A stretch of 64,000 nucleotides of DNA from Eledone cirrhosa (taxonomy: Eukaryota). Positions 3,051 to 64,000 of the stretch are shown piece after piece. The position numbers and the translations under genes are program-made. Under the pieces are notes generated by a model. That model saw only the letters and a list, made by a program, of their open reading frames with translations, searched no databases and had not been told where the DNA came from. The first letter of the stretch is position 1; each line of letters opens with the position of its first letter. Location of the stretch: assembly GCA_964016885.1 (NCBI GenBank), contig OZ024743.1:251534001-251598000 (forward strand), read 5' to 3'.

Positions 3051-3615
3051 AAAAGAATTTTCGCTCTACATGGCTGAATACAATAAATGTAATCTGAGTT
3101 TTTCGAATGAACCCTTCATTCTACTGCATTTGGCTTTAAAAATGAGGCTTGTTTGCATAATTGCAAACGAAGTGAATGTTATTATTAATTTTCAAAAAAC
3201 TCAAATTACATTTATTGTATTCAGCCATGTAGAGCGAAATTTTTTTTTTTTATTTGAATGTGGCAAAGCCGGCCATTTATCGCTCGTATACAGGAAACTG
3301 ACTGGCCAGTCTGCTGATATGCAAATCTGCTAATATGCAGATCCGACTGATCAGCCATTCTGCTAATATGCAAATCAGGCCAATCAGTCACTGTATATTT
3401 TAGAAAATAGCATATATTTTCACTAGCTCTGACAGTTGGCAGGTGAACAGTGAGCTGTACTGATGAAGGGTGATACCTAGAAACATTAGTGTCTGTAGTT
3501 CTGTTTACATGCCAACACAAGAGCAAGAATGGCTTTAAAAATGAGGATTGTTTGCATAATTGCAAACAAATTGAATGTTATTATTAATATTTGAAAAACT
3601 CAGATTACATTTATT
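3051..3615 (+). mobile_element. Non-autonomous HHR element (PLE pseudo-LTR / retrozyme-like): ~400-bp unit with terminal redundancy and an inverted 5' arm, between (TA)n tracts
   Basis: 3131-3216 is repeated at 3530-3615; 3051-3106 is the reverse complement of ~3192-3248; (TA)n lies on both sides; contains an HHR. Confidence 0.8.
3435..3516 (+). ncRNA. Type I hammerhead ribozyme, GUC cleavage triplet
   Basis: GCTGTA-CTGATGA(3460)-AGGGTGATACCTA-GAAAC-ATTAGT-GTC-TGTAGT. Helix III ACA/UGU; helix I extended by GTTGGCA/TGCCAAC and GTGAACAG/CTGTTTAC. Confidence 0.8.
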
Positions 3616-3744
3616 TTATATATATATATATATCATCATCATCATCATATATATATATATATATATATATGACAAATACAGGGAATCAAAACCAATTTGT
3701 CTTATTAGGTTATTAGGATCATGCTTTGGATAATAGATGGTAAA

Positions 3745-3786
3745 AAAGTTAAACGTATCAGATATTATTCCTTCATCAGGAGAGTA
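3745..3786 (-). ncRNA. Decayed hammerhead-like motif in a small insert between (TA)n tracts
   Basis: Minus strand CTGATGA-AGGAATAATATCT-GATACGTT; the GAAA box reads GATA. Confidence 0.4.
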
Positions 3787-61272: not shown

Positions 61273-63124
61273 ATATCCAGTGCTTTTATCGAGAATGACA
61301 CAGCTAGAGACTTATAGAATACTTAGCTGTGTACAGGAACTGGTTTGAAAGAGCGGTTGCCGGTCCGGCAGAAATTAGAAATTGGAATAAATGCTCTGAA
61401 ATAGCGATATATATATGAATATAGACCTAGAATATTCGAAAATATTCTGTATGTTTATAATAAACATTTTGAAGACCTAATCGCTATAGAATAGAATACG
61501 TCACGTATTACAATTAGATTCTCGATAAAAGCAAGGGAAGTAATCTACGCGTTTCATTCTTGTTAGAATTCATCAGGACTACATATCCAGTGCTTTTATC
61601 GAGAATGACACAGCTAGAGACTTATAGAATACTTAGCTGTGTACAGGAACTGGTTTGAAAGAGCGGTTGCCGGTCCGGCAGAAATTAGAAATTGGAATAA
61701 ATGCTCTGAAATAGCGATATATATATGAATATAGACCTAGAATATTCGAAAATATTCTGTATGTTTATAATAAACATTTTGAAGACCTAATCGCTATAGA
61801 ATAGAATACGTCACGTATTACAATTAGATTCTCGATAAAAGCAAGGGAAGTAATCTACGCGTTTCATTCTTGTTAGAATTCATCAGGACTACATATCCAG
61901 TGCTTTTATCGAGAATGACACAGCTAGAGACTTATAGAATACTTAGCTGTGTACAGGAACTGGTTTGAAAGAGCGGTTGCCGGTCCGGCAGAAATTAGAA
62001 ATTGGAATAAATGCTCTGAAATAGCGATATATATATGAATATAGACCTAGAATATTCGAAAATATTCTGTATGTTTATAATAAACATTTTGAAGACCTAA
62101 TCGCTATAGAATAGAATACGTCACGTATTACAATTAGATTCTCGATAAAAGCAAGGGAAGTAATCTACGCGTTTCATTCTTGTTAGAATTCATCAGGACT
62201 ACATATCCAGTGCTTTTATCGAGAATGACACAGCTAGAGACTTATAGAATACTTAGCTGTGTACAGGAACTGGTTTGAAAGAGCGGTTGCCGGTCCGGCA
62301 GAAATTAGAAATTGGAATAAATGCTCTGAAATAGCGATATATATATGAATATAGACCTAGAATATTCGAAAATATTCTGTATGTTTATAATAAACATTTT
62401 GAAGACCTAATCGCTATAGAATAGAATACGTCACGTATTACAATTAGATTCTCGATAAAAGCAAGGGAAGTAATCTACGCGTTTCATTCTTGTTAGAATT
62501 CATCAGGACTACATATCCAGTGCTTTTATCGAGAATGACACAGCTAGAGACTTATAGAATACTTAGCTGTGTACAGGAACTGGTTTGAAAGAGCGGTTGC
62601 CGGTCCGGCAGAAATTAGAAATTGGAATAAATGCTCTGAAATAGCGATATATATATGAATATAGACCTAGAATATTCGAAAATATTCTGTATGTTTATAA
62701 TAAACATTTTGAAGACCTAATCGCTATAGAATAGAATACGTCACGTATTACAATTAGATTCTCGATAAAAGCAAGGGAAGTAATCTACGCGTTTCATTCT
62801 TGTTAGAATTCATCAGGACTACATATCCAGTGCTTTTATCGAGAATGACACAGCTAGAGACTTATAGAATACTTAGCTGTGTACAGGAACTGGTTTGAAA
62901 GAGCGGTTGCCGGTCCGGCAGAAATTAGAAATTGGAATAAATGCTCTGAAATAGCGATATATATATGAATATAGACCTAGAATATTCGAAAATATTCTGT
63001 ATGTTTATAATAAACATTTTGAAGACCTAATCGCTATAGAATAGAATACGTCACGTATTCCTGTACACAGCTAAGTATTCTATAAGTCTCTAGCTGTGTC
63101 ATTCTCGATAAAAGCACTGGATAT

Positions 63125-63167
63125 GTAGTCCTGATGAATTCTAACAAGAATGAAACGCGTAGATTAC
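63125..63167 (+). ncRNA. Type I hammerhead ribozyme, GUA triplet (further plus-strand copies at 63435, 63745)
   Basis: GTAGTC-CTGATGA-ATTCT-AACA-AGAAT-GAAACGCGTA-GATTAC. Core intact; helix I GUAGUC/GAUUAC; palindromic ACGCGU helix III; distal 16-bp helix ATTCTCGATAAAAGCA/TGCTTTTATCGAGAAT. Confidence 0.92.
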
Positions 63168-64000
63168 TTCCCTTGCTTTTATCGAGAATCTAATTGTAAT
63201 ACGTGACGTATTCTATTCTATAGCGATTAGGTCTTCAAAATGTTTATTATAAACATACAGAATATTTTCGAATATTCTAGGTCTATATTCATATATATAT
63301 CGCTATTTCAGAGCATTTATTCCAATTTCTAATTTCTGCCGGACCGGCAACCGCTCTTTCAAACCAGTTCCTGTACACAGCTAAGTATTCTATAAGTCTC
63401 TAGCTGTGTCATTCTCGATAAAAGCACTGGATATGTAGTCCTGATGAATTCTAACAAGAATGAAACGCGTAGATTACTTCCCTTGCTTTTATCGAGAATC
63501 TAATTGTAATACGTGACGTATTCTATTCTATAGCGATTAGGTCTTCAAAATGTTTATTATAAACATACAGAATATTTTCGAATATTCTAGGTCTATATTC
63601 ATATATATATCGCTATTTCAGAGCATTTATTCCAATTTCTAATTTCTGCCGGACCGGCAACCGCTCTTTCAAACCAGTTCCTGTACACAGCTAAGTATTC
63701 TATAAGTCTCTAGCTGTGTCATTCTCGATAAAAGCACTGGATATGTAGTCCTGATGAATTCTAACAAGAATGAAACGCGTAGATTACTTCCCTTGCTTTT
63801 ATCGAGAATCTAATTGTAATACGTGACGTATTCTATTCTATAGCGATTAGGTCTTCAAAATGTTTATTATAAACATACAGAATATTTTCGAATATTCTAG
63901 GTCTATATTCATATATATATATATATATATATATATATATATACATATATATATATGGGAAAATGTACAGTTAGGTATATTTGAAAAAAGGTAAAGAATG

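Follow-up and report, generated by a model that had tools for sequence, protein, structure and literature searches.

Penelope-like elements (PLEs) that encode an endonuclease (EN+ PLEs), such as Penelope/Poseidon, Neptune, Nematis and Hydra, feature an open reading frame (ORF) of a reverse transcriptase (RT) and a GIY-YIG endonuclease (EN), a hammerhead-bearing pseudo-long terminal repeat (pLTR) and 5′ truncation, according to the sections of PMC8557442, PMC3846280 and PMC2377424 that deal with them. An inverted 5′ copy, a tail on one side only and a bias toward (TA)n are described for PLEs in a passage of PMC8557442 that calls the origin of their tandem and inverted structures undefined, and the head-to-head arrangement is given as the most frequent one in a passage of PMC3846280. 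The window analyzed here—a stretch of 64,000 nucleotides of the Eledone cirrhosa genome (contig OZ024743.1, positions 251,534,001 to 251,598,000)—contains five head-to-head palindromes, which are PLE insertions and resemble EN+ PLEs in hammerhead, 5′ truncation, inversion, tail and target bias, two of them also in coding order. Because inverted head-to-head copies, a tail on one side and a bias toward (TA)n belong to the published hallmarks of PLEs, the architecture is known, and the common rule stated by the original prediction for this window is not a novel one. The present analysis adds a counted rule for the two outer ends, evidence against fold-back copying, run-off at an initiator-like site and palindromic retrozyme concatemers. 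No such end rule and no twin-priming reading of PLEs was found in literature searches, whose coverage left out several older Penelope papers.

Two further systems are close. The protein of the anole Poseidon PLE (PAc) cleaves and extends both strands in vitro and is predicted to be a dimer; its RT starts at two sites bounding the tail, and the steps after RT initiation are left unvalidated in the sections of PMC11167929 concerned. The families described here appear to share with PAc an AT-rich target, the cutting and extension of both strands, two internal RT starts and an independence from hammerhead cleavage. Those sections do not link dual-strand extension to inverted copies, using the word inverted only for a blocking nucleotide, and give no strand difference in the start site. 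Metazoan non-LTR retrozymes, in turn, are built, like some of the families below, of units a few hundred bp long that are repeated in tandem and each carry a type I hammerhead; they are proposed as nonautonomous PLE derivatives in passages of PMC7229834 and bioRxiv 10.64898/2026.07.22.740005. Searches of the two main texts for such terms brought up no inverted or palindromic retrozyme arrangement; the supplements of the preprint could hold some.

Anatomy of the window insertions

The five insertions are assigned to families A to E. Each family has two fixed 3′ ends, S (short) and L (long), the latter being S plus a tail of 27 nt in A, 91 nt in B, 97 nt in C, 91 nt in D, 26 nt in E and approximately 33 nt in a sixth family, F. 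The tails of B, C and D (91–97 nt) are unlike the 30–40 nt usual for EN+ PLEs in the passages cited above. The arms are arranged as follows.

3051–3108, minus strand: family A inverted arm; outer end L; adjoins (TA)n at 3040–3051
3105–3615, plus strand: family A main arm; approximately 1.25 tandem units of about 400–420 bp; S end before (TA)n; junction overlap 4 nt
3453–3503, plus strand: family A type I hammerhead-like motif; core 3460–3466; stems as read from the sequence
6485–6730, minus strand: family B inverted arm; L end; core 6683–6677
6698–6843, plus strand: family B arm; S end; core 6738
27619–27930, minus strand: family C inverted arm; S end (+6); core 27844–27838
27940–28437, plus strand: family C main arm; nearly one 509-bp unit; end at S+11; core 28207
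32314–32568, minus strand: family D inverted arm; L end; core 32504
32568–32752, plus strand: family D arm, from beside the putative initiator to S; core 32654; junction overlap 1 nt; long (TA)n next
61071–63059, minus strand: family E, inverted concatemeric arm made of 6.4 identical units of 310 bp with six hammerhead motifs; L as outer end (unit position 269)
63058–63920, plus strand: family E, concatemeric arm made of 2.8 identical units with three hammerhead motifs; S as outer end (unit position 243); junction overlap 2 nt

The inverted structure is present at all five sites, and the polarity originally noted for the CTGANGA core—minus strand in the left arm and plus strand in the right—holds in B, C, D and E; family A has a single core (3460, plus strand), its left arm being too short to include one. 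The arms are 91–100% complementary over approximately 60–860 nt, which excludes a chance origin. The left starts of B and D are corrected and move from 6577 to 6485 and from 32406 to 32314 because the tail of about 91 nt had been left out; these segments (6485–6576 and 32314–32405) have no mirror on the right. The left end of A lies approximately 27–40 nt further along than its right end and that of E 26 nt further along the unit. The right end of C does not adjoin (TA)n and is fused directly to another PLE fragment at 28437. The junction of B sits inside a natural internal palindrome of about 20 nt.

As read from the sequence, the hammerheads of A, B, D and E feature stem I, CTGANGA, stem II, GAAA and a short stem III; the stem II region of C is enlarged, and the left-arm ribozyme of B has lost the G of its GAAA. 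The Rfam scan of the window gave no hammerhead at the gathering score, E alone being matched at 23 bits against a gathering score of 52 (E-value 0.32), and its output was mainly miRNA noise driven by microsatellites. The ribozyme calls hence rest on core-and-stem anatomy. The core columns are not more conserved than the remainder in these young copies.

Judged by the pieces recovered upstream, the B and D inserts represent truncated termini of PLE families of the autonomous type, with RT plus GIY-YIG; the two are weakly related to each other (36 nt at 78% in the tail). A walk into the DNA upstream of longer B and D copies reached broken RT and GIY-YIG pieces in canonical order—RT and then EN upstream of the arm at loci L228, L226 and L225 (B) and L234 (D)—with a cysteine-rich linker upstream of the EN in the longer PLE copies. 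L234 features partial tandem pLTRs in the layout pLTR plus tail, ORF, pLTR. Matches in Pfam were below the curated cut-offs (RVT_1, E-values 3e-4 and 1e-3; GIY-YIG, 9e-4); three of eight B and D pieces had no relevant match in Pfam, and one further EN piece had none. These remnants support the suspected PLE origin. The source suggested originally, small ribozyme RNAs, does not hold as worded for B and D: their longer copies enter the RT-EN ORF, even though their short palindromes look copied from a transcript's 5′ pLTR of about 260 nt. A, C and E are retrozyme-like, resembling non-LTR retrozymes in their tandem hammerhead-bearing units. The tandem character extends to F, which has approximately 150 nt around its ends in common with E and served as a held-out test. 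Against a retrozyme unit range of 150–450 bp, E (310 bp) and A (about 400–420 bp) fall inside and C (509 bp) just above.

Fixed outer ends and variable junctions

The 3.0-Gb genome, which is rich in microsatellites, was searched with one query per arm. The candidates numbered 3,619 in A, 1,283 in D, 779 in B, 584 in C and 7 in E, at most the best 40 per query being scored; the counts below therefore describe best-scoring copies and are not a census. The 210 classified insertions comprise 146 of A–D (after removal of 6 duplicate loci), 7 of E, 30 of F and 27 new B loci from a query with the tail. Fifty long-copy loci (L171–L220) and L223 were left out, most of them falling short of the 5′ junction; by inspection and outside the counts, L221/222 and L223 look like S/L cases and L228 like an L/L case.

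Simple head-to-head structures account for 139 of the 210 insertions, single-arm copies for 67 and complex ones for 4, and a direct tail-to-tail arrangement occurs in none of the 210—a polarity as nonrandom as had been proposed. Locus L113 is turned toward a relative of 82% identity, from which a (TA)n gap separates it. Among 74 S/L inserts, 142 of 148 outer ends lie at (TA)n, compared with a background of 15%.

One S and one L end are combined in 112 of the 118 scorable palindromes (p about 1e-26 against 0.5): 14/14 in A, 23/24 in B, 14/17 in C, 23/23 in D, 7/7 in E, 11/12 in the held-out family F and 20/21 in B resampled with the tail query. Single-arm copies have 35 S and 27 L ends, so that an independent choice of ends would give about 49% S/L. 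This inequality of the two arms, the informative feature, had escaped the original prediction. In the EN+ PLE passages the tail is optional or often one-ended; here, inverted copies almost always combine one S with one L. Hammerhead cleavage was considered as the end-setter and rejected: in B and D the cleavage site, as read from the sequence, is approximately 52 nt internal to S, in E it is at unit position 104, and the ends do not cluster at it, so that the hammerhead sets none of the ends. Stalling of L arms at S is not claimed; an end no more than 30 nt past S is seen for 7 of the 23 L arms in D and 3 of the 23 in B, a post hoc and weak pattern.

Of the 23 D pairs, 18 have an S arm whose 5′ reach exceeds that of the L arm, as do 11 of the 23 B pairs. 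In these pairs, each arm hence has sequence that its partner lacks—the tail in L, the 5′ reach in S—which excludes simple fold-back copying and sides with the two priming events of the original prediction. Long copies with a long partner are only 1 of about 39 per family in the B and D walks, and a coupling of arm lengths is not claimed. Non-CpG minor alleles are shared by partner arms more often than expected (A, 36 against 9.1; B, 21 against 4.8; C, 27 against 8.3), and in E the variant set of a locus is carried by both arms; these shared variants point to one template source for the partner arms of A, B, C and E.

The inner ends of B pile up at a TCACT initiator-like motif, which sits 32 nt after TATATAAA: 33 of 92 lie within 9 nt around its A, with the mode exactly there, 51 are spread across the next 50 nt and 8 pass the motif. 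In D, 27 of 48 lie at the equivalent site, a proportion partly favored by query length. A TATA/TCACT pair is described for a rotifer pLTR in a passage of PMC3846280. Run-off at the 5′ end of a sense RNA would explain the near-perfect palindromes and argues against an antisense template.

Junction overlaps were read in D and E, the divergent references making those of A, B and C unreliable; one E junction, in which a substitution had interrupted the exact match, was entered as a 4-nt overlap. Flush joining with 0–4 nt of overlap is seen in 21 of 32 well-resolved junctions, and 11 of these 21 have an overlap of at least 2 nt, compared with about 22% by chance (p 0.002). The junctions thus resemble ordinary end-joining with modest microhomology. 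Inner ends and junctions differ insertion by insertion, as anticipated. At three D loci on different contigs (L106, L165 and L169), the junction is identical or almost so, with 4 nt of overlap, which suggests that joining recurs at a hot spot or that a composite was remobilized.

All seven E loci found are palindromic concatemers of approximately 2.2 to 8.7 kb, in which as many as 29 unit segments make up a locus and either arm comprises several units. Each locus is bordered left and right by TA-rich repeats, ends in S on one side and in L on the other, and has a junction of its own. Units within a locus are nearly or fully identical, and the window and the C1 locus have the same unit sequence. 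The scatter of E junctions across the unit matches the expectation for a template without a 5′ end; the layout is compatible with a circle, or a long multimer, being copied repeatedly at insertion and suggests that the arrays were born as concatemers. In the array passages of bioRxiv 10.64898/2026.07.22.740005, by contrast, arrays are suggested to grow locally after insertion, whereas E features S/L ends, junctions unique to each locus and two-sided multi-unit arms. Some single variants are found again at a distance of 7 units at L237 (C5) and of 10 units at L239–L240 (C6), which suggests that blocks were duplicated inside an arm once it had been inserted, or else assembly effects. A variant common to the inner units of one E locus was dropped from consideration because it recurs at other loci.

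Asymmetric priming and its alternatives

The best model for these insertions, with a probability of roughly 0.7 as judged from genomic scars, is asymmetric twin target-primed reverse transcription followed by end-joining. The PLE enzyme would cut both strands of the (TA)n target, an activity demonstrated in vitro for the anole PLE, and each cut strand would prime RT on the sense RNA of the element, one at S and the other at L. The two cDNAs would then be joined head to head by alternative end-joining, with 0–4 nt of overlap or small inserts, and the single-arm copies (67/210) would be events in which one priming failed. Near-perfect short palindromes would result where synthesis of both cDNAs stops by run-off at one and the same RNA 5′ end, at the TATA/initiator of the pLTR. 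For family E, the two RTs would each make many rounds of a circular or multimeric RNA, and the retrozyme-like units likely borrow the same PLE enzyme. Dual target priming is favored because of the S/L pairing, the non-nested arms, the shared alleles, the stops at the sense initiator and the anole in vitro data.

The use of one RNA molecule for both arms is somewhat preferred to that of two molecules from the same source. More tentative is the full proposal that an asymmetric two-RT reaction on one RNA, with the S and L starts allotted to the two target strands, yields tail, inversion and palindromes jointly, and that retrozyme circles are copied by double rolling-circle RT into multi-kilobase arrays in a single step. 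In LINE-1 twin priming, reportedly proposed by Ostertag and Kazazian in 2001, the second target strand is said to prime internally and joining by short homology to give a 5′ inversion; the second primer site is reportedly variable and the segments hardly overlap. Here, both arms start at fixed sites and overlap by up to 1.7 kb, giving true palindromes. PLE palindromes work like twin priming, yet do not follow the L1 pattern.

Several points weigh against the asymmetric-priming model or limit its reach. The six exceptions among the 118 palindromes are three S/S inserts, all of C and including the one in the window, and three L/L inserts; in the window C insert, the adjoining PLE fragment at the right end may have removed the tail. 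Another 21 of the 139 head-to-head inserts are unscorable, an end lying at neither S nor L. The S/L classes were defined after viewing the data and with tolerant windows, F and the tail-query set coming later. The minor alleles of D are uninformative because of too little variation (1 shared against 0.1 expected), and the shared alleles of the other families could come from later arm-to-arm gene conversion. Transcription start at the TCACT site is a motif prediction. Inserts, mostly of 1–16 nt and some templated, occupy 11 of the 32 D and E junctions, to which the microhomology joining foreseen originally does not extend, and short internal fold-backs and templated inserts at some junctions, for instance at L119, L125, L243 and L307, indicate local snap-back. 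For A, C, E and F, no autonomous partner was found; a tblastn search of four PLE pieces against the fetched loci, with no genome-wide protein search, returned only neighboring, separate PLE insertions. The evidence consists of genomic scars, from which every step is read, and its copies are the best-scoring ones.

The first alternative is a self-primed or fold-back hairpin DNA intermediate, in which a staggered endonuclease cut leaves the tail on one strand; hairpin, self-priming and resolution ideas are found in passages of PMC3846280 and PMC8557442. It would account for the head-to-head polarity, the shared alleles and the presence of one S and one L end, and small hairpins and templated inserts are indeed seen at junctions. 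Of the 20 unequal D pairs, 18 carry the spacer on the S arm, as a hairpin of fixed polarity predicts; in B, however, the spacer arm is S in 11 and L in 9, and either arm of E can be the longer one, so that no fixed polarity applies. Moreover, 7 of the 23 D pairs have an L arm that reaches barely beyond the tail and hardly pairs with its partner. The pile-up of arms at the sense TATA/initiator is unexpected from an antisense template, and two target-primed RT start sites account for the tail in the relevant sections of PMC11167929. This alternative is therefore considered unlikely. S/L pairing, non-nested arms and initiator run-off are what separate dual target priming from antisense self-priming with endonuclease resolution, and the S/L model is testable in the existing in vitro PLE system.

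A single target-primed cDNA, from which the RT jumps to an antisense transcript or to nascent cDNA and ends at the other fixed site, would explain the single template source and the short junction overlaps, and the palindromic loci themselves would provide antisense RNA. A jump to nascent cDNA, however, offers no supply of a tail where the S arm is the longer one, and a jump to antisense RNA gives no reason for the exact S/L stop or for a start at the sense initiator, which makes this route decidedly improbable. Less credible still is that two insertions struck one (TA)n hot spot independently: several PLE families do gather at (TA)n sites here (L113 and L141), but true neighbors have (TA)n between them and often belong to other families, whereas the palindromes join 5′ to 5′, are S/L in 112 of 118 cases and share minor alleles.

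MITEs (miniature inverted-repeat transposable elements) or foldback DNA transposons, with terminal inverted repeats that hold hammerhead-like motifs by chance, would have outer ends at fixed positions and TA flanks as seen here. In the event, the ends of one insert differ by the tail, arm lengths range from about 20 to 1,700 nt, junctions vary between insertions and 67 of the 210 copies are one-armed; the objection that termini might prove to be of the MITE type, which the original prediction had raised against itself, did not hold, although a TA target-site duplication is unreadable within (TA)n flanks. The linkage of long B and D copies to RT and EN, together with the variable junctions, refutes this reading. 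An assembly or library fold-back artifact, suggested by the 100% identity of the E arms in the window, is negligible given that the flanks are unmirrored, the ends differ by a family-specific tail, the arms of older families diverge by 2–6% and the public run X1 independently has (TA)n at the S site of E in 7 contigs.

Family E links retrozyme arrays directly to PLE-type integration ends. The insertion process has seeded many hairpin-forming loci (584–3,619 candidates per family in A–D and F), which could give rise to double-stranded RNA or instability.

Occurrence of E elsewhere and neighboring features

At least half of the sampled words of the E unit (63058–63367) are present in 20 public runs with 17 organism labels from 16 studies, no RNA data set being listed among them. 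Four runs compared with the unit show 2–4 differences from the window, and three of the four have one contig closing at a period of 310, which a tandem array or a circle fits equally. Run X1, in which (TA)n is joined at the S position, holds 640 variant E contigs at very high summed depth. The presence of E in public runs may reflect contamination, related hosts or horizontal spread.

Two further PLE features adjoin the insertions.

986–3039, minus strand: truncated PLE ORF (RT, then GIY-YIG-like EN); 5′-truncated, nearly intact, one in-frame stop
28437–29072, plus strand: single-arm PLE of another family; 5′-truncated; includes the last part of EN; core of its hammerhead at 28822; (TA)n at the end

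The 5′ end of the ORF adjoins the (TA)n that carries insert A, a partnership with A not being demonstrated. The ORF features an Asn/Thr-rich linker, nested tandem repeats of its 3′ region lie at 51–1040, and its relatives include two Octopus proteins among 30 matches. (TA)n sites frequently carry several PLE families side by side. A SINE-like (short interspersed nuclear element-like) repeat of approximately 190 nt is inserted repeatedly in AT-rich spots of B and D copies (L107, L108, L147, L150 and L115), one insertion spot being exactly at S.

The remaining window holds further repeats. A small palindrome of the opposite layout at 6977–7066, in which two (ATG)n-tailed repeat ends face inward over (TA)n, is probably due to two insertions of a common SINE- or LINE-like repeat. 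A tRNA-like SINE head follows a long (TA)n at 33093–33230 (Rfam tRNA, 28.5 bits), a unit of about 570–660 bp is repeated three to four times at 37113–40836 with 94–97% identity and (TATG)n/(TA)n tracts between the copies, and a (CTA)n tract of 875 bp occupies 41824–42698. The 12-kb array at 47881–59973 consists of 48/51-bp units with putative open frames of more than 1,000 codons on both strands, the minus-strand frame being Thr-rich and mucin-like and the plus-strand frame Val-rich. Another repeat at 60917–61023 has one end fixed at (TA)n, likewise beside L091, L069, L084 and L105, and is possibly another TA-targeting family.

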